A stretch of DNA of 32,000 nt from NCBI RefSeq assembly GCF_000012805.1, contig NC_007484.1, positions 2,520,001-2,552,000 on the forward strand. Reading direction: 5' to 3'. Below, one piece after another: positions 1,047-23,607 of the stretch (positions within the stretch are counted from its first letter, which is position 1; each line of letters opens with the position of its first letter). Under the pieces are notes generated by a model that was not told the origin of the DNA, ran no database searches, and was given only the letters and a program-made list of their open reading frames with translations. The DNA comes from Nitrosococcus oceani ATCC 19707 (lineage in GTDB: Bacteria; Pseudomonadota; Gammaproteobacteria; Nitrosococcales; Nitrosococcaceae). The translations under genes were made by a program, and so were the position numbers.

Positions 1047-1055
1047 AGCGTGTTT

Positions 1056-3027: not shown

Positions 3028-3257
3028 ACCGGCGACTCACCGATCAGCTCCCGCCAGCATGTCGATGCTTCACAAGACATCAAGCCCATGACCGCGGCTA
3101 AAAGAAAATAATGGGGAAACATGTTCTGCAGAATACTGCGCAATCCAAAGTGCAAGCTATACACGGTAAGAGTGTAATACCTTTATCTTTTAAAATAATG
3201 ATCTGGCCTTAATTGAAGTCGCTAGCAGTCCAATCAAGCTTCGCGACCATTCCCCTC

Positions 3258-4283: not shown

Positions 4284-4295
4284 CGCTTAATTCCT

Positions 4296-5099: not shown

Positions 5100-6025
5100 T
5101 CCCCAATACCTAATCGCACCCGCGGATCGGCCCAACCATAGATAAGATCCGTTAAGGTATTAACGGCCACATAAGTCAGGCTAATCAATAGCACACACCC
5201 TTGTACCACAGGATAATCCCGCCGTTGAATAGACTCTATCGTAAGTTGACCAATTCCCGGCCAGGAAAATACCACTTCGGTAATAACGGCCCCCCCTAAT
5301 AAAGCGCCTAATTGCAGGCCCAGCACCGTAATGAGCGGAAGCAAGGCATTACGCAGCCCATGCCACCATATTACCCGTCTTGCCGACAAACCTTTGGCCT
5401 TTGCCGTTCGGATATAGTCTTCTCCCAAAACTTCCAGCAGGGCAGCACGCACCATCCGGGAAAGAATGGCGGCCAGGGCACTCCCCAAGGTCAGGGCCGG
5501 CAACACCAAAGAGCTCAGCCCGGCCCGCCCGCTGACTGGAAACCAACCCAAGCCGATGGAGAAAATCAGGATCAGCATGGGTCCCAGCCAGAAGTTAGGC
5601 ACTGAAACTCCGAGTAAGGCAAAGGCGCTCGCCGCCCGATCCCAAATGGTCCCCCGGCGCACCGCCGCCAATACCCCTAAAGGAAAAGCAATCAGTATCG
5701 CCACTAACAGCGCCGCTAGAGCCAGTTCCACAGTTGCCGGCAAACGTTCGGCCAGCAGCTCCATCACCGGCCGTTGAGAATAAAGTGAAGTCCCTAGATC
5801 CAATTGGGCTAGTCCTTGGAGAAATTGACTCAATTGCACCAGCAAGGGACGGTCCAGCCCTAAAGCCTGACGCAATGCCTCCCGGTCAGCGGGCCGCGCG
5901 CCTTCCCCTAAAATGACCTCCACGGGATCGCCTGGAATAAAATGGATGAGCAAAAAAACGAGGCAAGCCACTCCAAGCACCACGACCGCCGCGCTTAGCA
6001 GCCGGCTTAGCAAGAAATATCCCAT
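5096..6025 (-). CDS. Peptide/nickel-type ABC transporter permease (DppB/OppB-like)
   Basis: The 309-aa ORF starts with the typical 'MGYFLLSRLL..IHFIPGDPV' N-terminus. It has the EAA loop 'EDYIRTAKAKGLSARRVIWWHGLRNALLP'. Confidence 0.88.
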   Translation of the reverse strand: MGYFLLSRLLSAAVVVLGVACLVFLLIHFIPGDPVEVILGEGARPADREALRQALGLDRPLLVQLSQFLQGLAQLDLGTSLYSQRPVMELLAERLPATVELALAALLVAILIAFPLGVLAAVRRGTIWDRAASAFALLGVSVPNFWLGPMLILIFSIGLGWFPVSGRAGLSSLVLPALTLGSALAAILSRMVRAALLEVLGEDYIRTAKAKGLSARRVIWWHGLRNALLPLITVLGLQLGALLGGAVITEVVFSWPGIGQLTIESIQRRDYPVVQGCVLLISLTYVAVNTLTDLIYGWADPRVRLGIGE

Positions 6026-6036
6026 TGGAAAACCGC

Positions 6037-6534
6037 TTAGCTAATGAATACCCGCATTCCCGGCTTCACTTGCTTAAACAATTCAAGCAGAGGTCCATTA
6101 TGGATGCGAATACAGCCATGGGAGCCCGGAAGGCCCATGATCGCCGCATCCGGAGCCCCATGGATATAAATATACCGGCGAAAAGTGTCTACCCTGCCGA
6201 AACGATTTTTACCCTTTTCCAAACCACTTAGCCATAAGATCCGCGTCAATATCCAATCCCGATCCGGGTAAGCCTGCCCCAGCTCAGGGGTATAAATTTC
6301 ACCTGTTGGCCGCCGCCCCCGGAATACGGTATTCACGGGACAGCCGGTACCAATTTTAGCGCGGATCTGGTGCCACCCCCGAGGTGTGCATTCGCTCCCC
6401 ATTTGCTCGCCTAAACCCTTTTTTGCTAGAGAAACAGGCGCCTCAAACAATACTTTCCGCTCCCTCCTTAGGATAAGCCGCTGTTCCAGGAAATGGACAC
6501 GAATATAGGGTTCTGGCTTCATGAGCGTTTCCAA
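6037..6534 (-). CDS. L,D-transpeptidase (YkuD/ErfK) catalytic-domain protein without a signal peptide
   Basis: The YkuD active-site motif is present: 'IHGAPDAAIMGLPGSHGCIRI' (His...Gly...Ser-x-Gly-Cys-Ile-Arg). The protein is 165 aa. I see no hydrophobic N-terminal leader. Confidence 0.8.
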   Translation of the reverse strand: METLMKPEPYIRVHFLEQRLILRRERKVLFEAPVSLAKKGLGEQMGSECTPRGWHQIRAKIGTGCPVNTVFRGRRPTGEIYTPELGQAYPDRDWILTRILWLSGLEKGKNRFGRVDTFRRYIYIHGAPDAAIMGLPGSHGCIRIHNGPLLELFKQVKPGMRVFIS

Positions 6535-7672: not shown

Positions 7673-8536
7673 TCAAGGTTTAGCATGCATCCACCCACTC
7701 ACCTCCTCGAAAAATTCGAGAGTGACGCGTGCCGCATACCCCTGCCACTTTTTATGCTCACGGCCCTTTTCATCGATCTCGGTTACTCCGTCCTTCTTAG
7801 CGCTCGTGTTGATACCTACCATAAACCGGGTCGAGAATCGTTTAGAGCGAACTTTGTACCAAATGGGGCCGCCGCTCATACCTCTGGCTCGTTTCTCCAA
7901 CGGTGCTAAGGCGTCGAATACCATGCCCCGACCAGGTATTACTCCCCCCTGGCCGTCGGGAACGACGAGACCTGAACCCGGAATGTTGCCCCAACGGACC
8001 TGCATAGCTCTTTTCGTTTCCTTATGGTAGCCGGCGGTGAAAAACCTCTTATTTATCCTTGACTGCAGCCACTGAATTCCAAGCGGAGCAAAAACTGTTT
8101 TGTGCCCCTGGCTGGGATGGCCCCAGTAACCCAGCGGTTTACCTTCCAGCGCCTTGTGACGATCGGTGGTGATGTTGTCGTTCGATAGAATCACCATGCC
8201 GTAATCGTAGGCTCCATTATCCAACGATTTTTTATGTTTTCCTGCTCGCCAGCCCTTGCTCACCTCAAGATCCGAAACGGAGGAGTAGCTTCCTAACGAG
8301 TCGCTACCATCATATGCCGGAAGGACCTCAACATTCACCAGCCTAGCTCCCTTCCGATAATGGGGATCGAGGACGTGGGCGGCCGTGAGCACGTGTCGCG
8401 GTCCAACGAGGATTCCTGTTGCAGACTTTCCCTCTATCACGAGCCGACAGATCCACCGAAAGGGAATATCAAAACTCTTGGGAACCGTTTTCCCACCCGG
8501 CTTGATCTGATACTCAATAGTGACTCGTTTATTCAT
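7673..8536 (-). CDS. Trypsin-fold (S1/V8-like) serine peptidase, no signal peptide; operon gene 6 of 6
   Basis: A catalytic triad is readable in the canonical order: His54 in 'VLTAAHVL', Asp111 in 'YDYGMVIL' and Ser221 in 'GMSGGPIW'. The N-terminus (MNKRVTIEYQIKPGGKTVPK) is hydrophilic. A 111-nt gap separates it from the upstream gene, and I see no obvious SD. Confidence 0.8.
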   Translation of the reverse strand: MNKRVTIEYQIKPGGKTVPKSFDIPFRWICRLVIEGKSATGILVGPRHVLTAAHVLDPHYRKGARLVNVEVLPAYDGSDSLGSYSSVSDLEVSKGWRAGKHKKSLDNGAYDYGMVILSNDNITTDRHKALEGKPLGYWGHPSQGHKTVFAPLGIQWLQSRINKRFFTAGYHKETKRAMQVRWGNIPGSGLVVPDGQGGVIPGRGMVFDALAPLEKRARGMSGGPIWYKVRSKRFSTRFMVGINTSAKKDGVTEIDEKGREHKKWQGYAARVTLEFFEEVSGWMHAKP

Positions 8537-8647: not shown

Positions 8648-10450
8648 TCATTTTATTTCTTTAGTTGTGGGTCGGATCGCCAGCAACCGCTTTAAAAAAC
8701 GGTCTGCATCTGCAGGTTTGTCAGATCGGGGATTAGTTTTCCTCCGATCCGGCTGACTGGCTGCTGTAAGTCGTGCGATCGCTCGAGGATAACTCCCCCT
8801 CATAAAGAGAATAATGCGACGAACGGGCCACTCATACGGCCGCATCCCAGGTCTTCCAATCTCTTTGGCATCTTTGAGTAATTGCTCCGCGATCTTTTCA
8901 CCACCGGGTGCATTAATATGTGCCTTCTTTACGATGTAGGAAGCATCTACCCACACGCGAACCAGGGACTCGGTCACATTCCAAGAAGATAGAAATGCCT
9001 TCTGGGTATTGCGGATCCATTCGAAGGCCAATAACTTGAACATTCTGGAGCCGGTTAGCCAACCATTCTCGCGTTTCCAATCTAGGTGATTGGCATAATC
9101 GACGAGCTGTTTCTTATATGCCTTCCGCTCAGTTCGCGGCATGCCCTCGTATCTGCGACGGACAAGCGCGAAATAGTTCGTCTTGGCCCTTCTGAGCTTA
9201 ACCTTCTGCTTGGTAAGTACGCGGGCGAACTGGACGATAAAATCCCGAAGCTGTGCCCTCTCGCGTGCCTTTTCGGCGCGAGCATTCTCTGCTGCGAGTG
9301 CATCGAGGATACCCTCGACGTGGCCCACCACCTTTGATCGCTTAGCCAATGTATTAAGCAGCTGCTTCTCAATATAATTCTTCAGGACACTAGCGAATTT
9401 CGCGCTGCCCTCCGCATCAGAAGCAGACTTCAATACCTCGCCAAATTGCATCAGTGCTGATTCCCAAGCCTCTAACATCATATACTCAGCTTCGTAGATC
9501 TCCATTGCAAGTTCGCTCGGGTTTTTATCCACGTTGGCGAGTGCAGTTGGTGAGACTTGCGAGGGCGATACGGGCGGCGGAGCATCATACTTTGGCATGT
9601 GAAACCGAAGGCTGGCCCACGTATTTGGCCCTATGATTCCGTCTGGCTTCTTATCGCCCTGAGCTTCCTGCCACATATACACTGCCCGTGCAAAATCCTC
9701 CGGCGTTTCAATGGACAAAAGCTCGAGTTGGCTCACCAAGAAATTTTTTATCTCGTGTCTCTTCAGGTCCCATTTCAGCTTTTTGGCATAGTATTTGTTT
9801 CTTACCACCGCACGTCTGACATTGAATGATATTTCTTGCTCAAGAAACCCCGACCCTACTACATCTTCTTGCTTATTCCCTAGGTCAAAATCCTCCCACT
9901 CTTCATATTCAATGTCATCGTCAATCGCTTCCTCGTACTCATAGCTCGAAAATGGTGATTCCCGTTGTTGGAAAAACCCATCCTCAGACTCATCTCTAAC
10001 GTCAACGTAGCTATGCCATGCACCAGCAGGAGTATCCTGGGATCCTCTATCGGCTTGCTTCGGAGTCATCATTTCGTTGGTCTTTTCAGAATCATAAAAA
10101 TCCCTTTCCTCCGACCCTTCCAATTCATCAGTGTTTTCATCAGGAAGGAGTGATTCTTCCACTTCTTCTTCGCGATCTAGCTCATCAAAGAATTCTTCTT
10201 CTTCTAGTTCCTCGTCTATTTCCCCCTTGCGAATATCCCCCCTGAACCCTTCAGCTTCCTCGGCTGATTCACGTAAATCATTAAGAAAAGGGTTTTCTAG
10301 ATGAAACGTCTCTAGGCGGCTATCCAGATTCTCCACTTCCGCTAATTCAGCATCTGAAAACAGTTCCTCATTAAGGAATGGTGAAGCAGAATCATCTTTT
10401 GAACCGGGCTGGGAGGAATATCTATCAATATGTTTCTTTTGCGAATCCAT
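8648..10450 (-). CDS. Hypothetical 600-aa protein: acidic N-terminal about 200 aa with SPF motifs, PG_binding_1-like motif, helical basic C-terminal half; operon gene 5 of 6
   Basis: The long ORF has coding-like composition. AGGGAG lies upstream of the ATG at 10450. Residues about 20-200 are very rich in D/E. 'ARAVYMWQEAQGDKKPDGIIGPNTWASL' matches the C-terminal half of the peptidoglycan-binding-domain-1 consensus (DG-x-hGp-xTw-xxL). I recognise no catalytic motif. Confidence 0.7.
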   Translation of the reverse strand: MDSQKKHIDRYSSQPGSKDDSASPFLNEELFSDAELAEVENLDSRLETFHLENPFLNDLRESAEEAEGFRGDIRKGEIDEELEEEEFFDELDREEEVEESLLPDENTDELEGSEERDFYDSEKTNEMMTPKQADRGSQDTPAGAWHSYVDVRDESEDGFFQQRESPFSSYEYEEAIDDDIEYEEWEDFDLGNKQEDVVGSGFLEQEISFNVRRAVVRNKYYAKKLKWDLKRHEIKNFLVSQLELLSIETPEDFARAVYMWQEAQGDKKPDGIIGPNTWASLRFHMPKYDAPPPVSPSQVSPTALANVDKNPSELAMEIYEAEYMMLEAWESALMQFGEVLKSASDAEGSAKFASVLKNYIEKQLLNTLAKRSKVVGHVEGILDALAAENARAEKARERAQLRDFIVQFARVLTKQKVKLRRAKTNYFALVRRRYEGMPRTERKAYKKQLVDYANHLDWKRENGWLTGSRMFKLLAFEWIRNTQKAFLSSWNVTESLVRVWVDASYIVKKAHINAPGGEKIAEQLLKDAKEIGRPGMRPYEWPVRRIILFMRGSYPRAIARLTAASQPDRRKTNPRSDKPADADRFLKRLLAIRPTTKEIK

Positions 10451-10497: not shown

Positions 10498-11664
10498 TCA
10501 AGCCGACGTGACCTTCCTTGCCTTCAAATCATGTCCCGTCGTGATCGACCAATGGGTAATAATGGTCCTGATATCGGCCTCCGGCCCACCAGATACTCGC
10601 GTGTAAAGTGCAGGTACTGCCCCAGGATCATTGTAAATGCCGGTCTCGATCTGAATCAGAACCCTAGAGATTGCATCCGCCATATCGAAGAAATTTTTTG
10701 ATAAAGCATGCGCAGGCAAACCGACCCGCTGAGCGATTTTGTGCAGTCTTTGCTCGGGACTGGTGCCTTCTGCCCGAAGTGATAGCACAATCGGCGAATC
10801 AAATTCCAAGGTGAGCTGAAACCAGGCCATCATGGAGACAAAGAAAAACTCTTCCCGGGCCAGGTTGCTGCCCAGTCGGCGCGTCACCAACATATCATGG
10901 AGTTTTTCGGCAAGATTGGCGATTTCCGCATCATCAGTGGGATTGGAGCCACTGGTATTATTGACGTTAATAACACCCAACCACACTTCGCGAAGAAATT
11001 CCTCGAAGATGTAGACAAATTCAGAATTGGCTGCCTGGGCCTTTTCATAAGGTATTTTATCCTCGCCTTGATGATTCAGCTCCATACCGAACATTCGGTA
11101 ATAGGCGTTACGGCGGGAGGAACAAAGATTGGGGCGAATAAAGCTGCCCAGTGAATAAATAAAAAACGATGCTGGTTCCTTGTAAAAAAGCTCTTCTGTG
11201 TTGCGCAACCAATGCTCAGCGCCTTCAATGGGGACGCCTAATTGCTCACCATGTCGAAATTCATGTAATACTTTGCGGAAGATCTCATAGACCCGCGTGT
11301 TTTCGATCATGTAAGCATAAATGAGGTGGTCCCACATCACACAGCGGGGAAGATCTCGGGGCTCTAAGCAAGGATTATTAGGTGGGAGATTTACGGCTTC
11401 AACTTGGGGATCCGAGTCGCAAATATCTTTAATATTGTCTTCAGTACAGGCAAATAATTTGAGTAAATAATGGGGCAACCCAGGAAGATTGCTTCGCCGA
11501 AAGGGATGTCCTTGAGGCTTATCATTTGGAGGCGTATCATCATGTCTTCTTAATTCCCAAGCCTGCTCTAACAAGGCGGCTAATTCCACCGGGTGTAACC
11601 GGAAGAGTTTCCGCGCCCCCTCGTCCATCGAGCCTGGAAAAGATCCTGCAAATTGTCTGAACAT
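10498..11664 (-). CDS. Hypothetical 388-aa protein; operon gene 4 of 6
   Basis: A strong SD (AAGGAGGG) lies upstream of the ATG at 11664. The gaps to both neighbours are 46-47 nt. The sequence looks soluble and has four Cys between residues 73 and 108. I can name no family. Confidence 0.7.
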   Translation of the reverse strand: MFRQFAGSFPGSMDEGARKLFRLHPVELAALLEQAWELRRHDDTPPNDKPQGHPFRRSNLPGLPHYLLKLFACTEDNIKDICDSDPQVEAVNLPPNNPCLEPRDLPRCVMWDHLIYAYMIENTRVYEIFRKVLHEFRHGEQLGVPIEGAEHWLRNTEELFYKEPASFFIYSLGSFIRPNLCSSRRNAYYRMFGMELNHQGEDKIPYEKAQAANSEFVYIFEEFLREVWLGVINVNNTSGSNPTDDAEIANLAEKLHDMLVTRRLGSNLAREEFFFVSMMAWFQLTLEFDSPIVLSLRAEGTSPEQRLHKIAQRVGLPAHALSKNFFDMADAISRVLIQIETGIYNDPGAVPALYTRVSGGPEADIRTIITHWSITTGHDLKARKVTSA

Positions 11665-11710: not shown

Positions 11711-12040
11711 TTACTCCTTCTCCTTCGCGCGCGCTGACGGATTAGCCCTTGGATTAATGGGAGGCAGGCGCCATTTTTTTAGAGGATCTATATTGGGATC
11801 GAGTTGTGTAGGCACCCTAAGCGCAATCTTAATGGCCTTAAATTGTTCAATCGCCTGGTCCGGTAAGCTGCCTTCTTCAAAAGGTTGCCTAGTCCGCGTC
11901 TGAACCAGATCGCGGACTTCTTCAAAAATACCCGTAAGTAATTGGACAATTTCCTGGGTATCCACCCCTTTCCCCACCTGAGATCCTGCTGAGCTGGTTT
12001 TCTCCGGAGACCGCTTCGATGTATGTTTTTCGTCTGCCAT
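11711..12040 (-). CDS. Hypothetical 109-aa hydrophilic protein; operon gene 3 of 6
   Basis: A strong SD (GGAAGGAGAGG) lies upstream of the ATG at 12040, 31 nt after the preceding stop. The protein is charged, has no hydrophobic segment and has basic termini. Confidence 0.6.
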   Translation of the reverse strand: MADEKHTSKRSPEKTSSAGSQVGKGVDTQEIVQLLTGIFEEVRDLVQTRTRQPFEEGSLPDQAIEQFKAIKIALRVPTQLDPNIDPLKKWRLPPINPRANPSARAKEKE

Positions 12041-12071: not shown

Positions 12072-13334
12072 TCAAGCTGCTTTTAACGACGCACCTAACC
12101 GGAGCATCCACGCTTCCTGTTTTTTCAGTATCTCGGCGGACTGTTCCGGCATCGTCGCCACTTGCAACCCAGTAAGCGCCAGCAAGCGCAGCGCTTCCGT
12201 CCATATCCAATGCATTGAGGTGTAAAGGGCGGGGCCTAATTGCCGCTCTAGCTGTATCAAGCTTGCGGGACTAACACGGGAGGGGTCGATTAACCTACCG
12301 AGGGCTCGTCCCCGGAAAGCTCGCATGGGCGTCCGCAGCACAATGTGGACCACCTTTGGCAATAACGGCAACGACTGTTGTAGTAGCTTGCCCGTTGAGA
12401 GCCTGGCGTTCTTCAGAGAATGGGCCTTGGTCCATACACGCACCAAATCGTCCCATGGCCCTGCCCCATAAAACTGCCGGCACATCTCTATGCCCAATAG
12501 GACGCGGATATAGCTAATGGGGTGGGGATCGCCTAAACGATGCCGGAATACGAAGCCATCGCTTCCGGATAATACGTCATGAAGTCCAGCCACAGCTGCA
12601 TAGCCCGTATGGGCAAAGGCGAAAGCATCCGCTGCGATCTCGCTGGCCCATCCCGCCCACATCTCGGCCACCTCAGGCGATACCTCTGCAAATGTTTCTT
12701 CCAGCGCGGCAGCCAATTCATTATTCCAACCAACGATATGGGCGACCTGATGGCCTGTTTCGTGGATCAGCGCCGTGGGGCGATAAAGATTATGATAGAC
12801 AATTTTTATTGCCGCAGCCGGGCTTTCCGTGCGCTGGTCCCAAAGCCGAAGCCCCGCTTTCAGAATTGAAGCGCCTAATCCCTTATCCACATAGGTTAAA
12901 ACCAAAGGAATCGGCTTGCCTATTGGGTCAAGAACCTGGGCCATGCTACGATAGGCCAGCGCATCACAGGCCCGAAGCAATGCCGCCAGGTGGGGATTCG
13001 TTCGGATATTTATGGCGTCGGCGTAAAAATCCAGCGTAATTTCGGTGCGCAAGTAACGCTTACGAAAATCGACCAATTGCCGGCGGACCTGATCCAAAGC
13101 GTCATCATCATGGGCCGCGTTTAAGGCAGCATGAAGCTGATCGCCTTGCCGGAGCAGTTGATCGACCGCCTCTCTCAGCCTTTGGCGAACCGCCGTGCCA
13201 AGATAATATTCCAAGCCCTCCCAGGCACTCGGTGCAATGAGACTTTCCAGTTCGCCCAGCCTAGAGGCCGCCATGGTCCAATGCCCAACCTGACGGGTAA
13301 ACTGTGTCCGCGTTATATTGAGTAACTCATTCAC
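12072..13334 (-). CDS. Putative zinc metallopeptidase (HExxH; gluzincin/M3-like arrangement); operon gene 2 of 6
   Basis: 'ALIHETGHQVAH' (HETGH encoded at 12750-12764) is followed about 40 residues later by 'WASEIAADAFAF'. This is reminiscent of the third-ligand Glu helix of gluzincins. The GTG start at 13334 overlaps the upstream stop as GTGAATGA, which suggests translational coupling. I see no signal peptide. Confidence 0.55.
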   Translation of the reverse strand: MNELLNITRTQFTRQVGHWTMAASRLGELESLIAPSAWEGLEYYLGTAVRQRLREAVDQLLRQGDQLHAALNAAHDDDALDQVRRQLVDFRKRYLRTEITLDFYADAINIRTNPHLAALLRACDALAYRSMAQVLDPIGKPIPLVLTYVDKGLGASILKAGLRLWDQRTESPAAAIKIVYHNLYRPTALIHETGHQVAHIVGWNNELAAALEETFAEVSPEVAEMWAGWASEIAADAFAFAHTGYAAVAGLHDVLSGSDGFVFRHRLGDPHPISYIRVLLGIEMCRQFYGAGPWDDLVRVWTKAHSLKNARLSTGKLLQQSLPLLPKVVHIVLRTPMRAFRGRALGRLIDPSRVSPASLIQLERQLGPALYTSMHWIWTEALRLLALTGLQVATMPEQSAEILKKQEAWMLRLGASLKAA

Positions 13335-15738
13335 TGTAATATCCTGGAATAGTTTGCACGCGGATTTCCGGCATGGCTTCGGAGAAATCCATGCCGCGCA
13401 GGCTTATCGTTTTCCTTTTCAAAGCGTCGCGAAGAGCTGGCAAACCGGGCAGATTATCAAGAGTTATTGCCAAGGTGACGCCCTCTGCCGGATCTTCGGT
13501 GGCAACGATAAAGCTCTGGGGCTGTTCCCGGAAGTAATGGCTCAATCCTTTGCCCAACCACTCCGTTACCTTCATCAGTAAGCTTTCTTTAATGGGCTGT
13601 GGGACCTCCATAAGCGCGGGGCCACGGGCGCCTTGGGGCAACATGGCTTCATGGATGATCTTTACCTGGCCGCATATCCCGCTGATTAGCGCATGCTTCA
13701 AGCCGGGTTCCATACCCGACTTCAAGGAAATCATCACCACACCGATTGGCGTTCGCTGACGCAGCTTAACGGCGATATCCTGTGCCTTGGTCTCGCTCAG
13801 GAAGTGGTAAACTCGAATCTGCTGCCGCGCAAAATCCAGGATAACCTTAACTTCACTACAGCGCCTCATCATTGCATTGGCGCCAGCCATAGGACCCATT
13901 CGGAGCCGTACGCCTGGGATTTCCAAATAATAGAAACGCTGTCCAATCCCCGTCACACGGCGGTTGGCAAAATACTTGGGCGGCATTATGCGTCCTAGTC
14001 CAGGATGCCCGAGCAATATTCCAGCCGCTTCAGGAGTCAGGGGGTGCAACTGGGAATAGGCGTAATTTGCAGTCATTCCCAAGCCAGGAGTGTTGTGTTC
14101 GTGTTTGCTGATTTGCGGGAGCATGGCGCCAGACATCATTTCGTAGAGGTGAACTCTGGCCTCAACGTCTACACCTGGAGAAAGCCCGAGTTGTTCCTGC
14201 AAAACTTCCGACAGTGGGATACCACCGTAGGTTTTAACTGCCCGCAGCTTCGGGGGAGAGAGTTTAGCATTTAAAATTCGGCTGTATTTTTTATAAAATT
14301 TCCTCCCCCGCAATGGCTGGAGTATCCAGGTCGCCTTAAGGCCCTTCGTCTCCCGCAAATCTGGCCGCTTGAGATATGCTTCTTCCGGGAGAACTTCAGG
14401 CAAATTGCGTGTGGCGGCCTGCTCAAAAGCTTCTAGTACATAGCCTTCTAATAGCTCCTCGTCGTCCAAGACATAATCGGGCAGCACCGCAACTTGACGC
14501 AGGGTATCTTCAACCGTCGCCGCAACCGCGGCACCCACTGCCTGGCGCGCATCTTCTTCCGTCGCCTCGAGGTTAATTAACCGGAGGCCGGCATCGACAA
14601 TCGCTTTCGACAAGGGACGAACATACCTGCGTCCAACAAAACGTTTAATAAGTTTTGCGACATATTTAGCCAGGAAATTGACGAGCTTTGGCCGCCCAAT
14701 AAACCGTATACCCAATTTTACCAGGGGCAAGATGGCAGGAATAAAGTTCTCCACAAGCGGAGTGGGGTCATCGCCCTCTTCTAGCTCCAAAACTCCTTCG
14801 ATAAACTGCTCACGCGCCTGATCTAAATCGCCAAGGGGATCGGCGCTAGGTTGCCGGGCCTCAGAGCTCACTTCCGCCAGCATGAGCTCCTGCTCTGTTT
14901 CATCCTCGGAAAACAGTAGATTCGCCAGCATTAAATCAAATTCTTGCTGGAACTGGTTGATTTCAGCGACAGTATCTTCGCCTCCGTCGAACGATCCCTG
15001 GTCTTCAATTTCTTTTTGAAAGCCTAGCCGCTTGGCTAGTATTTGAGCCAAGGGCCGGTATTTTTTAGGCAGTTTATTGATCGCAAAAGTTGTGATTTTT
15101 TTGATCCACGGTTTTATATATTTTCTAAGTTTTCTCAGGGCAATCCTGAACGCTTTTCTCGCGAGCGCCTTGCCTTTTTTCTTGACCCAATCAACCCCCT
15201 TTTTGAGCGCTTTTTTGACCTTCTTCTTGGCCCATCCAAAAATATTTTCAAAGGCAGGTGAAAGCGGCTGGCTAGGCGCATAGTGGTCAATAAAGGCATC
15301 AATTTCAGACTCGCTCATCGCTTCAAGATCACGATGATCGATATCCTCGGCCATTGCCTCCAAAAGCGTCTCTAGCTCGCTAGCCAAGGGTGAGAGGTGC
15401 GCCTCCAATATGCGCTCGGCTTCCAGGGTCTGCTCGGCTGGATGCCGGTATTTGGACACAAACTGATCGTCATACAACCCGGAGGCTTCAGTGATCAGTT
15501 CAAAGACAGCTTCATCGAATTCTTCATCGTATAGTTCGGTCACAAATTGCACGAACTCTTCAGATTCCGGATCGACTCTTTCTTCGCCATCTTCCAGTTC
15601 ATAAACAGAAACAAACGGGCTGGCAGACTGAAGCGTCGCTGAAGATGGAGCGTGTTCCTGATCTACTTCAACCTCTGACGCTGGAAAGCTGGTCACATCA
15701 AGAAACGGTGAATGGGAAGTCTTGGCGGGCTGGGACAT
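13327..15738 (-). CDS. Hypothetical 803-aa protein with alternating acidic and lysine-rich blocks and an unassigned about 400-aa C-terminal domain; operon gene 1 of 6
   Basis: The SD AAGGAGG (15744-15750) lies 5 nt upstream of the ATG at 15738. The N-terminal about 166 aa are strongly acidic and contain two SPF[LV] motifs. Residues 167-240 are K/R-rich (encoded at 15019-15240). Residues 241-334 are acidic again. Residues 335-387 form a second basic-hydrophobic block (14578-14736). I recognise no family. Confidence 0.7.
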   Translation of the reverse strand: MSQPAKTSHSPFLDVTSFPASEVEVDQEHAPSSATLQSASPFVSVYELEDGEERVDPESEEFVQFVTELYDEEFDEAVFELITEASGLYDDQFVSKYRHPAEQTLEAERILEAHLSPLASELETLLEAMAEDIDHRDLEAMSESEIDAFIDHYAPSQPLSPAFENIFGWAKKKVKKALKKGVDWVKKKGKALARKAFRIALRKLRKYIKPWIKKITTFAINKLPKKYRPLAQILAKRLGFQKEIEDQGSFDGGEDTVAEINQFQQEFDLMLANLLFSEDETEQELMLAEVSSEARQPSADPLGDLDQAREQFIEGVLELEEGDDPTPLVENFIPAILPLVKLGIRFIGRPKLVNFLAKYVAKLIKRFVGRRYVRPLSKAIVDAGLRLINLEATEEDARQAVGAAVAATVEDTLRQVAVLPDYVLDDEELLEGYVLEAFEQAATRNLPEVLPEEAYLKRPDLRETKGLKATWILQPLRGRKFYKKYSRILNAKLSPPKLRAVKTYGGIPLSEVLQEQLGLSPGVDVEARVHLYEMMSGAMLPQISKHEHNTPGLGMTANYAYSQLHPLTPEAAGILLGHPGLGRIMPPKYFANRRVTGIGQRFYYLEIPGVRLRMGPMAGANAMMRRCSEVKVILDFARQQIRVYHFLSETKAQDIAVKLRQRTPIGVVMISLKSGMEPGLKHALISGICGQVKIIHEAMLPQGARGPALMEVPQPIKESLLMKVTEWLGKGLSHYFREQPQSFIVATEDPAEGVTLAITLDNLPGLPALRDALKRKTISLRGMDFSEAMPEIRVQTIPGYYSE

Positions 15739-16268: not shown

Positions 16269-17993
16269 ATGGAACACGGCTTTGACTTCACCCCGGTGCT
16301 GATTTTCCTGACGGCCGCGGTGGCACTGGTACCCCTGTTTCAAGCCTTGGGGGTCAGTCCCATCCTCGCCTATTTAGCCGCTGGCGCCATCATCGGCCCC
16401 CATGTCCTGGGGTTAATCAAGGAAGTGGAAAACATCGGCCATGTGGCAGAATTTGGAGTCATTTTTCTCTTGTTTACCATTGGCCTGGAATTATCCATTC
16501 TCCGGTTAATGAACATGCGCAGGGAGGTGCTGGGCCTGGGCACCGTTCAGGTATTGGTAACCGCCTTGCTTATCGGCTATGGAGCTCACCAGCTAGGCAG
16601 TTCCATAGAAGTGGCGATTCTGATTGGTGGCGGCTTGGCCTTTTCCTCCACCGCCATGGTAATGCAGCTACTGGCCGAGCGGGGCGAAAGCGCCGGCCGT
16701 ACCGGCCGTGGCGCCTTTTCCGTGCTGTTGTTTCAAGACTTAGCGGTGGTGCCTTTTATGGCTCTATTGCCCCTCTTGGCAAGTGATGGCAGCGATATTG
16801 GGACAGCCTTGGCACTGGCGGGAGCCAAGGCGATACTCGCCCTTCTGGTCATTTTTTTCATTGGCCGTTTCCTGCTCAGCCCCCTCTATGACCTGGTGGC
16901 CCGCACCCATAATCGTGAACTCTTCGTCGCTACCACCTTGCTTATCGTATTGGGCACCAGTTGGACCACTGGCCGCATGGGATTGTCACTGGAACTAGGC
17001 GCTTTCCTGGCGGGCCTGCTGCTGGCCGAAACCCAATACCGCCATCAGGTGGAGGGCGACATCAAACCTTTTAAAGGGTTATTCCTGGGACTTTTTTTTA
17101 TGTCAGTGGGGATGGCAATTGACTTGCAACTAGTATGGACCCAAATTGGTACGGTGCTGCTACTGCTGGCTAGTCTGTTAAGCCTGAAATGCGCGGTACT
17201 TGTCCTGTTCTGCCGGCTGTTTGGCTTTCCCATGGCCACTGCCGTTCATATTGGGTTATTGCTAGCCCAAGGCGGCGAGTTTGCTTTCGTGCTCTTTGGC
17301 TTCGCCATGATTCTAGGGATTATCCCCACGGAAATCGGCCAGCTTCTATTAGTCACTGTCAGCCTTAGCATGGTGCTGACTCCCTGGTTGGCAAGCCTGG
17401 GTGCCTACCTCTCCCGCCGGCTGACTCCGCCTCTGGCTAATCAAGAGGAGCGCATTCAAACCGCTAGCGAGGACTTGCGTAATCATGTCATTGTGGGAGG
17501 GTTTGGACGGGTAGGACAAACAGTAGCCCGGCTGCTGCAAAACTATAATGTGCCCTATATTGCTCTTGATGTGGACCCCCTTAAAGTCGCCCAGGGGCAA
17601 GCACAGGGCTATAGCGTCTATTATGGCAGCGCCGCCCAGATTGATGTGCTCAAAGCGGCAGGTTTGGAATGGGCCCGTTTGCTGGTGATGACCCTGGATC
17701 GCCATCCGGAAAGGACTCACTATTTAATCGGCGACCTGCACCGTTCCTATCCTGATTTGGAAATTCTGGTGCGGGGACGGGATCAAATCCAGAGCAAGCA
17801 ACTGCGCCAAGCCGGCGCCGCCGCGGTGATTCCCGAAGCCCTGGAAGCCAGTTTGCAGCTTTCTAGCCTGACCTTAAAATGCTGGGGGATTCCGCCGGAA
17901 GCCGTGGAACAGGCTTTAGAGGAAATACGCCGCGAGGACTATGCTCCCATCGTGGCCTTGCTCGCCAAACGGCGAAAAACAACGGATAAATGA
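16269..17993 (+). CDS. CPA2-family monovalent cation:proton antiporter with C-terminal TrkA-N/RCK domain (KefB/KefC-like K+ efflux)
   Basis: The N-terminal half has about 12 TM segments. The NAD-binding fold motif 'VIVGGFGRVGQTVARLL' follows. The start is set at the ATG at 16269 (MEHGFDFTPVLIFLTAAV...). The 33 upstream codons of the track ORF look non-native. Confidence 0.88.
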   Translation: MEHGFDFTPVLIFLTAAVALVPLFQALGVSPILAYLAAGAIIGPHVLGLIKEVENIGHVAEFGVIFLLFTIGLELSILRLMNMRREVLGLGTVQVLVTALLIGYGAHQLGSSIEVAILIGGGLAFSSTAMVMQLLAERGESAGRTGRGAFSVLLFQDLAVVPFMALLPLLASDGSDIGTALALAGAKAILALLVIFFIGRFLLSPLYDLVARTHNRELFVATTLLIVLGTSWTTGRMGLSLELGAFLAGLLLAETQYRHQVEGDIKPFKGLFLGLFFMSVGMAIDLQLVWTQIGTVLLLLASLLSLKCAVLVLFCRLFGFPMATAVHIGLLLAQGGEFAFVLFGFAMILGIIPTEIGQLLLVTVSLSMVLTPWLASLGAYLSRRLTPPLANQEERIQTASEDLRNHVIVGGFGRVGQTVARLLQNYNVPYIALDVDPLKVAQGQAQGYSVYYGSAAQIDVLKAAGLEWARLLVMTLDRHPERTHYLIGDLHRSYPDLEILVRGRDQIQSKQLRQAGAAAVIPEALEASLQLSSLTLKCWGIPPEAVEQALEEIRREDYAPIVALLAKRRKTTDK

Positions 17994-19131: not shown

Positions 19132-21375
19132 ATGACAATTGAGACGAAATTCAACATCCCTCTTGTGGCCAGTCTCGCGCTACGCGAGAAGCAGATTCAG
19201 CAGAATTACAGGCCGATCATTGCTGTCCACAAATGGTTTGCACGGCGGCCTGGCAGCCTTTTCAGAGCGCTGGCTCTGGCTGAATTTGGCGAGGCGCCGC
19301 TTGCCGATCTATACTTTACGGCCAACAATTTTCCGGGGAGGCAAGTCGCCGATCCCTTCATGGGTGGCGGAACGCCACTGATCGAAGCTAACCGCATCGG
19401 TTGCGATGTGACTGGGTTTGACATCAATCCGATGGCCGCGTGGATAGTCCGCGAGGAAATCGAGCATCTTGACATCACGGTTTATCAGGAGGAGGCCAGC
19501 CGGTTTCTCCACAAGTTGCGCCACGAGATCGGGCCTCTGTATGTGACAGACTGCTCCCTCTACGGCGATACCGACGTGCCGGTAAAATATTTCCTCTGGG
19601 TTAAAGTCATCAGCTGCGAGTCCTGTGGACAGGAGGTGGATCTGTTTCCCGGTTATGTCCTCTCCCAGAACGCCCGCCATCCAAAGAATGTAATGGTTTG
19701 TGCCGATTGTGGGGAACTGAGCGAGGTTAATGACCGAGCGGTGCCTGGGGTGTGCAAAAGCTGTGATGCAACCTTGCATGCCAAAGGCCCCGCGGGTCGG
19801 GGTCGCTGCGTTTGCGCCCATTGCGATCATGAAAATAGATACCCGCGCGCCAGCCAAGGACCATTACAACATCGGCTCTTCGCCATTGAGTATTACAATC
19901 CACACCGTAAGGCGCAGCATAAGGGGCGCTTTTTCAAAAAGCCAGATGCAAAGGATCTGGCGCGCGTTGCCGAAGCCAAACAGCGGTGGCATGAATTCCA
20001 TGCTCATTTCGTCCCAGAGCAAAAAATCCTCTCGGGTGATGAAACCGACCGGCTTCACCGGTGGGGCTACAGCCATTACCGGGAAATGTTTAACCATCGG
20101 CAGCTTCTGGGCCTGGAGCTAAGTTGCCGTCTGATCGCCCGTGTCAAAAATGAGCGCGTGCGTCATGCGCTGGCTACCAATCTGTCCGACCTTCTGCGCT
20201 ATCAGAACATGCTTTGCCGATACGACACCTGGGCGCTCAAGTCCCTCGATATCTTCTCTGTGCATGGCTTTCCGGTCGGGCTAATACAATGCGAATCGAA
20301 CCTGCTCGGCATTATTAATAACAAGGGCACCAATGTCGGCTCGGGCGGCTGGACCAACATTATCGACAAGTATACCAAGGCCAAGCGCTACTGCGATACG
20401 CCGTTCGAGGTGCAACGGCATGGCACACGCAATGTTCAGATTCCGATTCAAGGCGAATGGATCGGGGAAAAATTGAATGGTGAGCAGCGGCGGAACGTCG
20501 CTATTCATTGCGCTGACGCAACCACGGTGAAGTTGGCGCCGAATAGTCTCGATGCCGTGTTTACAGATCCTCCCTATTTCGGGAATGTACAGTATGGCGA
20601 GCTGATGGATTTTTGCTATGTCTGGCTGCGCCGTCTGGTGGGGAATGAAGCTGAAGGGTTCTGGCGACCGTCAACCCGTACCGATGGAGAACTCACCGGC
20701 AATGTTACCCGGTCTTGGGGACTTCCTCGCTTCACCGAGGGCCTTGCCCGAGTCTACCGGCATATGGCCGAGGCGCTACAACCTGGTGCACCACTGGCGT
20801 TTACCTACCACCATAATAAACTCAACGCCTATTTTGCTGTGGGTGTTGCCATCCTTGATGCCGGTCTAACTTGTTCGGCCTCCCTACCCTGCCCGGCCGA
20901 GATGGGGGGGTCTATTCATATCCACGGCACAACCTCATCGATCATCGATACCGTGTTCGTCTGTCGCGACACCGGCCACGTACCCAGGCGCTGGCTTTTC
21001 GAGTCTACCGATCAGCTCGCGGCCATTGTCGCCCATGATCTTGCACAGGTTGCCGAGGGGGGGCATAAACCAAGTATGGGCGATACGCGGTGCATTATCT
21101 TCGGTCATCTTACCCGTATGGCCATTTGGAATTTAAGACTGACGTGGGAAGCAAAGCTTTCGACTGATGAAAAGCTGGATCGCTTCGCCAAAGCGGTTCG
21201 CGCTCTGGCCGATCCCGACGATCTTCTCGAACGACTGCAAGCCGATGGGCGAGTGTCCGCTCCCGCCGAGCCGCTCTTTTCAGCGGCCACAACTTTGGGA
21301 AGGATTCGTGATGCCGTTTCCTTTCGAAGTTCCCTTTGCAGAGATCGAAAGCGATCTCGGCACTTATGTCGATGA
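19132..21375 (+). CDS. DUF1156 / COG1743-type DNA methyltransferase with internal zinc ribbons (N6-adenine or N4-cytosine class)
   Basis: The N-terminal 'AVHKWFARRPGSLFRA' is characteristic of DUF1156. The SAM-binding motif I is 'ADPFMGGGT' (19351-19374). Four CxxC pairs lie at 19615-19824. The catalytic motif IV is 'DPPY' (20566-20577). Confidence 0.85.
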   Translation: MTIETKFNIPLVASLALREKQIQQNYRPIIAVHKWFARRPGSLFRALALAEFGEAPLADLYFTANNFPGRQVADPFMGGGTPLIEANRIGCDVTGFDINPMAAWIVREEIEHLDITVYQEEASRFLHKLRHEIGPLYVTDCSLYGDTDVPVKYFLWVKVISCESCGQEVDLFPGYVLSQNARHPKNVMVCADCGELSEVNDRAVPGVCKSCDATLHAKGPAGRGRCVCAHCDHENRYPRASQGPLQHRLFAIEYYNPHRKAQHKGRFFKKPDAKDLARVAEAKQRWHEFHAHFVPEQKILSGDETDRLHRWGYSHYREMFNHRQLLGLELSCRLIARVKNERVRHALATNLSDLLRYQNMLCRYDTWALKSLDIFSVHGFPVGLIQCESNLLGIINNKGTNVGSGGWTNIIDKYTKAKRYCDTPFEVQRHGTRNVQIPIQGEWIGEKLNGEQRRNVAIHCADATTVKLAPNSLDAVFTDPPYFGNVQYGELMDFCYVWLRRLVGNEAEGFWRPSTRTDGELTGNVTRSWGLPRFTEGLARVYRHMAEALQPGAPLAFTYHHNKLNAYFAVGVAILDAGLTCSASLPCPAEMGGSIHIHGTTSSIIDTVFVCRDTGHVPRRWLFESTDQLAAIVAHDLAQVAEGGHKPSMGDTRCIIFGHLTRMAIWNLRLTWEAKLSTDEKLDRFAKAVRALADPDDLLERLQADGRVSAPAEPLFSAATTLGRIRDAVSFRSSLCRDRKRSRHLCR

Positions 21376-21895
21376 AATCTTTTCCTGCCTGCAATCTGAA
21401 TTCCTGACCTTGCCCAAAGGTCCGGGATTCGTCGAATATCCAGCGTTTGAGAGCGGCTATGAAGCGCTGAAGCGAACCACGGGCAACTTCCGGAACCTTT
21501 CGCCAGGGCCGGTGATTGAAACCGTCTACCGGGTGCCGATCACCTTGGTGGTACTGCGCTGTATGCTGGGTTTTACGCCGCCGGAATGGGCCTATGTCAC
21601 TTCCCAGCGGACCCATGTGGCAGTATCGCAGGGTGCGATCCGTACTATCGACCGCAAAATCCGCATGGAGCCTGCAACGCCGCTCAGGAACAGGGGCGGT
21701 GTGACAGGGGAGCGCATTCGCTCGCTCGTCACGACCGCCTGCCAAATTCTAACTGAAGGTGCCCCCGAGGAGCCGGAAGAGATTATTCACCGTCTCAATA
21801 AGGCCGATACAAGCAGCGGTCTTGCCAGCTTGCAACCACTGGCAGATCTTGGTGTACCCTACGCCATGCTTCTCTGTAACTGTTCCGCCAGCTAA
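21311..21895 (+). CDS. Hypothetical protein (about 194 aa) overlapping the methyltransferase 3' end; C-terminus possibly altered by the adjacent IS
   Basis: The ATG at 21311 is preceded by GGGAAGGA. It overlaps the methylase ORF by 65 nt in another frame. Its composition is coding-like, whereas the antisense ORF (21110..21745) is Arg-rich junk. The last 10-40 codons run into the predicted right end of the tnpB element. Confidence 0.5.
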   Translation: MPFPFEVPFAEIESDLGTYVDEIFSCLQSEFLTLPKGPGFVEYPAFESGYEALKRTTGNFRNLSPGPVIETVYRVPITLVVLRCMLGFTPPEWAYVTSQRTHVAVSQGAIRTIDRKIRMEPATPLRNRGGVTGERIRSLVTTACQILTEGAPEEPEEIIHRLNKADTSSGLASLQPLADLGVPYAMLLCNCSAS

Positions 21896-21960
21896 AGCTG
21901 GCGGCTTTCCACTGCACAAGGAGCACACTTATGCGCGAACATAGGCTGAGTTACAGCAGC
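21780..21960 (-). ncRNA. Candidate TnpB omega-RNA (reRNA) overlapping the tnpB 3' end and right end
   Basis: This is the position expected from established TnpB biology. Nested structure is visible. An outer 8-bp pairing joins 21873-21880 (CTGTAACT) to 21948-21955 (AGTTACAG). It encloses the 8-bp hairpin at 21885-21904. A further 6-bp hairpin lies in 21821-21845. The ends and guide were not determined. Confidence 0.3.
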
Positions 21961-23170
21961 CCTTCTGGCGATATTGCCAGCGGCGTTATGGTCTGCGTGA
22001 TTACTGTGCCCGCATTCCACACACCGAAACTCAGACTGGGTTGGCCGGTTAGCTTTGTCGATACGGCCACAGGCCGGGCACTCGCGGCTAGTGTTGCGTG
22101 GGTCGACTATCACCACCGGCACGCCAGCACGTTTAGCCTTATACTCGATAAAGGCACGAAGCTGAGCGAAGCCCCAGTTATGCAAGCGTTTCCTCTGCGC
22201 TTTGTTGGCCTTAACCCGTGCCCGGATATGCTTGAGATTTTCAAGTCCAATGCCGAGACGGGAGCGTTCCGCAGTCGAGACGATGCGTTTGGAGATACAA
22301 TGGTTCTCGTATTTTTGAAACCGTTTCTGCCTGCCGCTTATGTGGCGAAGGCAGCGTTTAGCGGCCCGTGTGCCGAGGCGCTGCAAGGTGGCGCGTCGTT
22401 TGGCGTAACGCTCACGGTAGGCTTGGACTTTAGCCCCGCAGTACCTCTCACCCAGGCTGTCAGTGGCGATATTGACAATACCGAAATCCACACCCAACAT
22501 GCCTTCAGGGGTCAGCAATTTGGGGTCGTCAAAGTCACATACAGCGGCCAAATACCATTGGCCGCGCACGAACATCAAATCGACTTCGCCCTTGCGGTGT
22601 TCAAGCAATTGGCGCTGGTGATCGCTACCAACATAGCCAATCTTTTCTCGACCCGACAAAAGCCACAGGGAGACTTTCTCATCACAGACAAAGCGCAGGA
22701 TACGGTCATCATAGGGATGCGCCGCATGCTTACGAAAGGCGCGCTGGGTTTTCTGGTCAAGCTTGTAGGCGTGCGCCACTTTAGCAATGCAGCGCACCGC
22801 CACCTGAGCGGACAATGCAAATTTGGCGCGCACGGCTTGATAGCAGAGCTTATGCAAATCGTATTGCCGGAATGTCTTCGTTTCCCAAGCGCGCTCAGAG
22901 AGCCAGTTGCACGCTTCATTACAGCGCGCCAGCGTCAAACGCAACTCGCGTTCTTGCGCTGGAGTTGGCGTCAGTTTGAGGTTAGCTACCAACTTCATAA
23001 GCTCAAGTATAGAGTGCTTTTATGGATAGATCTATCAACGGGCGGCTTTCTTCCACCCCCTGAAGGAGGCGCTCTCCAGCCGCAATTTTTATGAACGGTT
23101 CCTTGGCCGTCCCTTCGCCGGGCACCGCGATTCCGTCAGCGAACTGGCCGGTGATAGAGCATCTCTATCT
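21800..23170 (-). mobile_element. IS200/IS605-family, tnpB-only (IS1341-like, non-autonomous) element; boundaries approximate
   Basis: It contains an intact tnpB and no tnpA. A perfect 8-bp hairpin (21885-21892 / 21897-21904) spans the tnpB stop. The 10-mer GGCGGCTTTC is shared by both ends (21900-21909 and 23041-23050). A 7-bp hairpin GATAGAG-CAT-CTCTATC at 23153-23169 sits at the composition break with the DUF262 fragment. The exact LE and RE ends were not determined. Confidence 0.55.
21892..22998 (-). CDS. tnpB: TnpB (IS605 OrfB family RNA-guided endonuclease)
   Basis: The 368-aa ORF has RuvC-I 'LGVDFGIVNIAT', RuvC-II 'IGLENLKHI', the zinc finger 'CPACG...CVECG' and RuvC-III 'HADHNAAGNIARRA'. 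The N-terminus 'KLTPTPAQERELRLTLARCNEACNWL' is typical of OrfB. Confidence 0.9.
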   Translation of the reverse strand: MKLVANLKLTPTPAQERELRLTLARCNEACNWLSERAWETKTFRQYDLHKLCYQAVRAKFALSAQVAVRCIAKVAHAYKLDQKTQRAFRKHAAHPYDDRILRFVCDEKVSLWLLSGREKIGYVGSDHQRQLLEHRKGEVDLMFVRGQWYLAAVCDFDDPKLLTPEGMLGVDFGIVNIATDSLGERYCGAKVQAYRERYAKRRATLQRLGTRAAKRCLRHISGRQKRFQKYENHCISKRIVSTAERSRLGIGLENLKHIRARVKANKAQRKRLHNWGFAQLRAFIEYKAKRAGVPVVIVDPRNTSRECPACGRIDKANRPTQSEFRCVECGHSNHADHNAAGNIARRAAVTQPMFAHKCAPCAVESRQL

Positions 23171-23607
23171 TTACCTGGCCGAGCAAGGATACGGTTGAGG
23201 TAGAAATCATGATCCGTATCGTTCAGCTTTATATAGGGTGTATCTTCTAATGTTTCTAAATCTTTCTTAGAGAGATGGTCCTGCTGTATTATATCTGCAC
23301 GCTCACTATCACCATTCTTCAAGAAATAATCCCTTATGGAAGCCAGCAATATGCTCGTTGTTGTCAGTCTTTGCTGGCCGTCAATCACCCATTGACCACC
23401 TGTAGGCTCTTTTGCAATTACCACTGTTCCTAAAAAATATTCGCTTTCCTTATTTCGAATCGCATCATTCAAATCCTTGAATAGAGCAGAGGTCTGTTCG
23501 TCTGTCCACGCATAAAGACGTTGATACGGCGGTACAGCTACTCGCCGTGAGGAAAGAACAGTCCCTAATCCTGCAAGAGAAACATCGAGTTTTTCTATAG
23601 ATGACAT
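23089..23607 (-). pseudogene. Truncated DUF262 (ParB-like nuclease / GmrSD N-terminal domain) gene
   Basis: The N-terminal DUF262 motifs 'PPYQRLYAW', 'YFLGTVVI' and 'IDGQQRLTT' are present. Only about 145-150 native-looking residues remain. The frame then continues into GC-rich sequence with a junk-like tail (SPASSLTESRCPAKGRPRNRS) next to the IS left end. Full-length family members are several-fold longer and carry a C-terminal HNH/DUF1524 domain. Confidence 0.6.

Follow-up and report, generated by a model that had tools for sequence, protein, structure and literature searches.

A conserved protein with alternating acidic and lysine-rich blocks in an undescribed mobile gene cassette of Nitrosococcus oceani: a possible latent, charge-masked membrane-active component

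Introduction

What is the use of a long protein in which strongly acidic and lysine-rich blocks follow one another in regular alternation? This question is raised by gene A, an open reading frame (ORF) of Nitrosococcus oceani ATCC 19707 located on the minus strand at positions 13327..15738 (stop codon 13327-13329) of the 32,000-nucleotide stretch analysed here (contig NC_007484.1, positions 2,520,001 to 2,552,000; hereafter, the window), with a translation of 803 residues. A first-pass annotation of the window had suggested, by analogy with eukaryotic host-defence peptides, a precursor whose anionic pro-regions would neutralise cationic membrane-active peptides until these were released by co-encoded proteases, and had mentioned nucleic acid binding and an intramolecular autoinhibitory pair as alternatives. 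The results described below show that A is the largest constant component of an undescribed, horizontally mobile core of four genes (A, B, C, and D), and that the alternation of charge is a conserved, selected, family-wide design of this protein. Its function is read here, tentatively and with a likelihood somewhat below even, as that of a core protein with a latent, charge-masked membrane activity, which its HExxH-containing partner B may unmask.

The alternating charge blocks and their conservation

The net charge of the protein changes sign from each block to the next. Acidic block 1 (residues 1-166, 15241..15738; minus strand, as for all other features of genes A to F) holds a net charge of −35, with 25% D/E, and is followed by basic block 1 (residues 167-240, 15019..15240; +26, from 21 K, 6 R, and 1 D), acidic block 2 (residues 241-334, 14737..15018; −24), basic block 2 (residues 335-387, 14578..14736; +12), acidic block 3 (residues 388-460, 14359..14577; −13), and a C-terminal domain (residues 461-803, 13330..14358; +17). 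Over 50-residue windows, net charge spans a range of 38, compared with 17.6 ± 2.6 (maximum 28) in 5000 shuffles of the protein's own sequence (z 7.9). The sequence strings and coordinates quoted in the first-pass annotation for the two basic blocks proved to be correct, and the alternation described there is a property of the whole family: the order of charge signs (−, +, −, +, −) is kept in 93/93 close homologues and in all 318 members of a wider set of bacterial and archaeal sequences, 164 of which are less than 40% identical to the query.

The blocks are conserved to different degrees. Across the 93 homologues, mean column identity reaches 74% in basic block 2 and 77% in acidic block 3, the best-conserved block, and 57–60% in the remaining ones. 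In the first half of basic block 1 the sequence drifts, and indels of 4, 7, and 10–11 residues are tolerated, those of 4, 7, and 11 residues preserving the helical phase; lysine is favoured over arginine in this block (14.4 K vs. 4.7 R in the set of 318). The strong conservation of basic block 2 and of the acidic block that follows it is unlike that of host-defence peptides, which evolve fast, and speaks against this part of the original analogy.

Each basic hairpin is immediately preceded by a junction motif of the pattern P-x-Phi-E-x-F-Phi, SPAFENIF in the first case (residues 160-167, 15238..15261) and TPLVENFIP in the second (residues 326-334, 14737..14763). In the family alignments, these junctions read L-[ST]-P-x-F-E-x-F at residues 159-166 and [TA]-P-x-[VIL]-E-x-F at residues 326-332, and are both alike and conserved. 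When the profile of A was compared with itself, residues 160-220 aligned weakly with residues 326-380 (P 0.005, probability 7%), which may at most hint at an internal duplication; comparison by hhalign of segments of A, B, and D against each other revealed no relationship (P 0.06–0.54).

The family itself is large and widely spread. A word-indexed search with A returned more than 500 relatives, the best 120 of which are full-length and 45–86% identical, and those that bear a name are all called "hypothetical protein". Their sources include Nitrosococcus wardiae (86%), Methanosarcina, cyanobacteria, Nitrospira, Verrucomicrobia, Fischerbacteria, and a metagenome-assembled genome of Hodarchaeota. 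An exhaustive profile search found 1058 representative clusters (50% identity) at E <= 1e-3; the best 150 of them share the architecture of A, and consist of proteins of approximately 800 residues or of truncated parts of these. Scanning one genome per species yielded 79 A loci, which in the bacteria belong to Cyanobacteria, Acidobacteriota, Actinomycetota (Streptomyces, Nonomuraea, Amycolatopsis, and Mycolicibacterium), Bacteroidota (Dyadobacter and Chitinophagaceae), Ignavibacteria, Myxococcota, Planctomycetota, and Proteobacteria, and in the archaea to Methanosarcina and Methanothrix. Among the close kin of the host, on the other hand, A is patchy, being present in one of the three other species of the genus and in 0/37 further genomes of the family and order, so that it is an accessory gene that has spread horizontally. 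No model of Pfam, NCBIfam, PADLOC, or PHROGs matched A, a lenient Pfam scan of 20 homologues gave no consistent family, and neither did scans of genes A to F against these four collections.

Charge compensation between the blocks

The charges of the acidic and basic blocks do not vary independently of each other. Across homologues, the summed charge of the acidic blocks is anticorrelated with that of the basic blocks (rho −0.65, p 2e-12, uncorrected for phylogeny), the strongest pair being basic block 1 with acidic block 2 (rho −0.72), and the same tendency is found among the 318 sequences (rho −0.51, also with phylogeny left in). The charge of the C-terminal domain is hardly related to that of either basic block or of acidic block 2 (rho −0.04 to −0.18), and weakly to that of acidic block 1 (rho −0.33) and acidic block 3 (rho −0.26). 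The total charge of A has a standard deviation of 4.9, as against the 9.5 expected from independent block variation. This co-variation points to intramolecular masking. It supports the neutralising role that the first-pass annotation had assigned to the anionic segments, and fits even better its alternative of an intramolecular autoinhibitory pair.

Compensation of this kind is also the expectation for a salt-bridged bundle, and the helices of A might serve only as an architectural charge zipper, holding together the helical domain or a complex of A, B, and D, never leaving it, and having no activity on membranes or polyanions. Several features described in this work agree with this explanation, namely the single compact model of A (predicted template modelling score, pTM, 0.79), the conservation of basic block 2 and acidic block 3, which exceeds that of all other segments, and the conserved translational coupling of A and B together with the extreme conservation of B, which suggest an obligate complex. 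However, the first lysine-rich helix varies in sequence and length and yet remains amphipathic and charged in 93/93 homologues. Such free drift with kept amphipathicity points to selection on composition, which is typical of surface- or membrane-seeking helices and not of a packed core, and a charge of approximately +26 over 74 residues would be extreme for a structural helix. A purely architectural role is, on balance, rather unlikely.

Predicted structure and amphipathicity of the A protein

The AlphaFold2 model of A, made from 93 sequences, is that of a single compact folded protein, with a mean predicted local distance difference test score (pLDDT) of 76. Residues 1-54 and 223-254 are of low confidence, the former being disordered, while helices make up residues 57-460, and an alpha/beta domain with a pLDDT of approximately 90 spans residues 470-803. 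Basic block 1 is modelled as a hairpin of two helices, H164-188 and H190-219 (pLDDT 67–86), followed by the segment 223-240, and basic block 2 as a second helical hairpin, H346-368/H370-388 (pLDDT ~79–82). The acidic blocks are likewise predicted to be helical, with acidic amphipathic helices within residues 57-151 of acidic block 1, helices 259-276, 280-295, 301-317, and 326-339 in or at the edge of acidic block 2, and helices 394-417 and 427-445 in acidic block 3. Foldseek searches of the model against PDB and BFVD found nothing at E <= 0.001, and the profile of A run against PDB sequences gave nothing meaningful. The basic blocks appear as structured parts of a compact fold. On the strength of the model, the C-terminal alpha/beta domain represents a novel fold.

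The segment of residues 223-240 (15019-15072), which reads KLPxxYxPxAxxLAKRLG, combines high conservation (P224 in 98% and A231 in 96% of the 318 sequences) with a low pLDDT of 30–46, and may represent a linear motif whose folding requires a partner.

The amphipathic character suspected for the lysine-rich blocks was substantiated. In the first of them, the hydrophobic moment is 0.48 for H164-188 and 0.52 for H190-219, each with a z of 2.5 relative to shuffles, and H164-188 is amphipathic in 93/93 homologues (median moment 0.53, z >1.64 in all). The long acidic helix H100-135 is also amphipathic, with z >1.64 in 85% of the homologues. The maximum 19-residue Kyte-Doolittle value of A is 1.38, at residue 329 (family median of maxima 1.35), the most hydrophobic stretch of the protein being assigned to basic block 2. 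Neither A nor any of the proteins encoded with it in the operon has a predicted transmembrane segment, and A lacks a signal peptide, its N-terminus being hydrophilic and disordered; conserved dibasic processing sites were not seen in the family alignments either.

These data bear directly on the proposal of a polyprotein precursor, according to which the basic blocks would be cut out by proteases and act as free cationic antimicrobial peptides, with the acidic blocks as propieces to be discarded. The first basic helix is indeed amphipathic, with a composition that resembles that of magainin- or cecropin-type peptides, similar junction motifs lie ahead of both basic hairpins, and a HExxH protein always adjoins A. 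However, the single predicted fold, with its structured hairpins, does not resemble a chain of peptides to be excised; conservation is strong in basic block 2, the signal peptide and conserved dibasic sites are missing from A, and the trypsin-like gene is cargo rather than core, as described below. In addition, the conserved C-terminal domain of 340 residues would be left without any role. Excision of free peptides is, therefore, very improbable, and A is not considered a polyprotein of this kind.

The lysine-rich hairpins might instead bind nucleic acid, teichoic acid, lipopolysaccharide, or polyphosphate, with the acidic blocks as competitive mimics of these polyanions. The high charge density, the preference for lysine (14.4 K vs. 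4.7 R per block), and the compensation of basic charge by acidic segments would all suit such a function. Nevertheless, no nucleic-acid-binding domain was detected in the Pfam scans of A and of 20 homologues, the associated cargo is aimed at the envelope and not at nucleic acid, and a protein that only bound polyanions would not need the hydrophobic face and the amphipathicity that are conserved here. We regard this function as having little chance of being the correct one.

The core cassette

Gene A does not stand alone. The window encodes next to it gene B (12072..13334), a helical protein of 420 residues whose start overlaps the end of A by 8 nt, followed by gene C (11711..12040), a small variable protein of 109 residues, and gene D (10498..11664), a conserved core protein of 388 residues that is 58–61% identical to its copies in Methanosarcina (locus L001) and in metagenomes (loci L003 and L005). 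The same order is found in four Methanosarcina or metagenome neighbourhoods, where A (~800 residues), B (~420), a small variable C, and D (~380) are followed by a large protein with peptidoglycan-related domains. With hidden Markov models for A, B, and D built from alignments made in this analysis, the order A-B-D was found in every locus with enough DNA, and wherever B or D is missing, the locus runs up to a contig edge. An overlap of exactly 8 nt between the end of A and the start of B is found in 41/72 loci, that of the present window included. Literature searches found no description of this A-B-C-D cassette, and none of the four core proteins matches any described family.

B is remarkably well conserved, with 61–75% identity and an unvarying length of 420 residues in bacteria and archaea alike. 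It holds a HExxH motif (12750-12764) and a downstream ExxxD motif (12627-12641), whose residues H191, E192, H195, E232, and D236 are invariant in 48 sequences; the combination of HExxH with a downstream Glu ligand, which is one of the marks of the gluzincins, is present in B. Its structure model has a pLDDT of 90.7. No peptidase match was found for B in Pfam, NCBIfam, or PDB sequences, and a Foldseek search of its model against PDB gave no hit, to a zincin fold or otherwise, at E <= 0.001. The earlier idea of co-encoded proteases finds partial support in an HExxH…ExxxD protein universally present and tightly coupled to A, and none in the trypsin-like gene, which is no constant partner, trypsin domains occurring as one of many swappable tagged cargo classes.

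A profile search of PDB sequences with D gave nothing meaningful. For B, residues 41-98, which form an N-terminal helical hairpin, showed a weak PDB-profile match to the C-terminal coiled coil of the yeast ESCRT-I protein Srn2 (E 3.9e-4), probably an effect of coiled-coil composition. In protein C, a C-terminal motif W-x-L-P-P-[IL]-N-[PD]-R is kept (KKWRLPPINPR in the window copy at 11711-12040, KPWVLPPLNDR in L005 at 13722-13880) while the remainder of the protein varies. Some copies of the cassette seem to have decayed or been rearranged: B is broken into pieces of 326 and 92 residues in L003 (12483-13741), D into three ORFs in L006 (13916-15094), and in L053 (8684-13695) A is split and D lies upstream of it.

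A shared N-terminal tag and interchangeable cargo

The disordered N-terminus of A contains two [ST]PF motifs approximately 30 residues apart, followed by acidic sequence. The first, SPFLD (residues 10-14, 15697..15711), has P11 and F12 conserved in 96% of the 318 relatives, and the second, SPFVS (residues 40-44, 15607..15621), P41 in 98% and F42 in 99%; all four residues rank within the 38 best-conserved positions of A in this set. The gene that follows D holds the same two motifs, approximately 27 residues apart. An [ST]PF motif occurs within the first 60 residues of 91/93 A proteins and 53/64 genes after D, compared with 12/71 genes further downstream and 2/511 unrelated upstream ORFs. A bears the N-terminal twin SPF tag and the acidic leader of the cargo enzymes of the cassette.

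This cargo consists of interchangeable leaderless enzymes that attack the cell envelope. A PG_binding_1 domain is found in 11/41 of the tagged downstream proteins, and the other domains include DUF2272, Amidase_2, Peptidase_M15_4/VanY, trypsin, SLT, YkuD_2, PLD, M23, OmpA, amine oxidase, and S8. In the window, the position after D is occupied by gene E (8648..10450), a leaderless protein of 600 residues with twin tags (SPFL at 10373-10384 and NPFL further on) and a long acidic leader. Pfam contains no domain whatever for this protein, and its sole match, a sub-threshold NCBIfam hit (E 0.02), corresponds to a weak peptidoglycan-binding-like motif; its C-terminal 300 residues may constitute a new effector domain. 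Masking of the kind proposed for the acidic blocks of A may also be exerted by the acidic leaders of the cargo, in this case on the basic wall-binding domains of the cargo itself.

Gene F (7673..8536), a trypsin-like protein of 287 residues, is untagged, with no SPF motif and no in-frame upstream extension, and lies outside the constant core as an accessory or cargo-class gene. The trypsin-like class as a whole is cargo and not a core protease. At locus L006, a trypsin-like gene (16896-17675) carries an SPFQ tag. Cargo arrays, with two to four consecutive SPF-tagged genes after D, are seen in L026, L030, L022, L066, L077, and L010.

Neither a secretion or delivery apparatus (type 5 to type 7 secretion systems, T5–T7SS, contractile injection systems, and the like) in the window or in the inspected cassette neighbourhoods, nor an ATPase or membrane protein in or beside the cassette, was found. 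Archaeal peptidoglycan hydrolases are able to kill bacteria (PMC12352652). The cassette occurs with cargo directed at murein in Methanosarcina and Methanothrix, neither of which has murein itself, and this argues for its use against bacteria and not for self-lysis.

Other origins were considered for the cassette and discarded, a phage origin because of the lack of PHROG or BFVD hits, and an anti-phage defence system because of the lack of PADLOC hits and because the cargo is aimed at the bacterial wall even in archaea. On its upstream side, the cassette is bordered by divergent antiporter and sulfotransferase genes and then by other accessory genes (19132-23607). One of these (19132-21375) is methyltransferase-like, its matches to DNA-methylase models and DUF1156 being weak and below threshold; a TnpB-like gene lies at 21892-22998, and at 23089-23607 there is a short GmrSD_N fragment. 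The opposite flank (141-6534) holds housekeeping genes for transport and cell-wall recycling.

A possible mechanism for A

Under the reading of A as a latent membrane-active protein, the two lysine-rich amphipathic hairpins and the three acidic helical segments would form one soluble helical domain joined to the alpha/beta C-terminal domain, and the acidic helices would neutralise the cationic hairpins in a zymogen-like latent state. The mask might be removed in either of two ways: by B, the HExxH partner made together with A in stoichiometric amounts, which would act on the tag, the leader, or the junctions, or by an anionic bilayer, which would compete for the hairpins. Once freed, the cationic hairpins would bind and breach the membrane, and the breach would give passage to the co-encoded wall-degrading enzymes, either out of the producer or through the envelope of the target.

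Several observations weigh against this proposal. The compact predicted fold and the conserved basic block 2 would suit a permanent structural role equally well, and A and B, being translationally coupled, look more like members of a stoichiometric complex than like an enzyme and its substrate. B, a putative protease by virtue of its motif, has no peptidase-family match by sequence or fold. Foldseek against PDB and BFVD revealed no similarity of A to the fold of any known pore former, and the correlations between block charges include whatever is due to shared ancestry.

Relation to known systems

Polymorphic toxin and effector cassettes, as reportedly described by Zhang, Aravind, and colleagues, carry a constant N-terminal trafficking region on variable C-terminal enzymes. 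The cassette described here shares this defining arrangement of a common N-terminal region on variable enzymatic C-termini: a short [ST]PF tag, often present twice at a distance of ~27–30 residues, and an acidic leader precede variable amidases, SLT, M15, M23, PLD, and proteases, and at some loci several tagged genes lie in a row. Unlike these cassettes, however, it has no known secretion apparatus, ATPase, or membrane protein in or beside it, its largest core protein is itself tagged, and its core matches no described family.

In the bacterial gasdermin–protease operons of Johnson et al. 2022, a pore-forming protein is said to be restrained by an inhibitory segment until a neighbouring protease sets it free. 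A and B would follow a similar logic, with a latent, putatively membrane-active protein beside a putative protease. On the other hand, A is predicted to be helical with a new alpha/beta domain and not to consist of beta-sheet, it has no PDB match, and no gasdermin model hit in the PADLOC scan; B is an HExxH protein of no known family, and the cassette adds wall-degrading cargo and occurs in archaea.

The precursors of host-defence peptides, such as the multi-copy precursors of amphibians (prepromagainin) and the propieces of cathelicidins and defensins, combine anionic segments with cationic amphipathic helices of compensating charge. A also alternates anionic segments with cationic amphipathic helices, and the analogy holds for charge compensation only, given that A lacks a signal peptide and dibasic sites, that its blocks lie within one predicted fold of 803 residues with a large extra domain, and that its gene is bacterial or archaeal and its product cytoplasmic.

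A further parallel, in the idea of charge-based autoinhibition of a membrane-binding surface is offered by ESCRT-III, PspA, and Vipp1, in which a basic helical hairpin is autoinhibited by acidic C-terminal helices. A likewise combines basic hairpins and acidic helices in one chain. However, it differs from them in the presence of a second hairpin, in the order of its elements, and in its far larger size, and it gave neither a Snf7 or PspA_IM30 hit in Pfam nor any Foldseek hit at E below 0.001.

Finally, colicins and pyocins are leaderless bacteriocins with a disordered N-terminus bearing short conserved linear motifs, are released with no classical signal, and hold pore-forming or wall-directed domains. 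The proteins of the cassette are similarly leaderless, with a disordered N-terminal region that contains short conserved linear motifs. A colicin domain was not detected in A by Pfam, nor does A contain a hydrophobic helical hairpin (maximum Kyte-Doolittle 1.38), and the Foldseek comparison with pyocin S5 remained at noise level (E 2.5). A further difference is that the tag is identical across many phyla and archaea, which points to a partner encoded by the cassette itself and not to a target-specific receptor.

Implications

Taken at its widest, the combination of A, B, C, and D might constitute an unrecognised deployment system, with no ATPase or integral membrane component, present in many bacterial phyla and in methanogenic archaea, in which A, unmasked by a protease, would open the membrane so that SPF-tagged lytic enzymes reach bacterial walls. 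This wider scheme is speculative, and we consider it doubtful at present.

Should A act as proposed, it would be a working part of a widespread, unannotated deployment of cell-wall-degrading enzymes that uses no known secretion signal or machine. The scale of the family is considerable, as its 1058 clusters at 50% identity extend over more than 10 bacterial phyla as well as Methanosarcina and Methanothrix, and its study bears on the open question of the export of archaeal peptidoglycan hydrolases, 68% of which have no signal peptide (PMC12352652). The same proposal would add a new fold and a further case of charge-masked membrane activity, and the SPF tag with its acidic leader offers a possible handle for finding further effectors.

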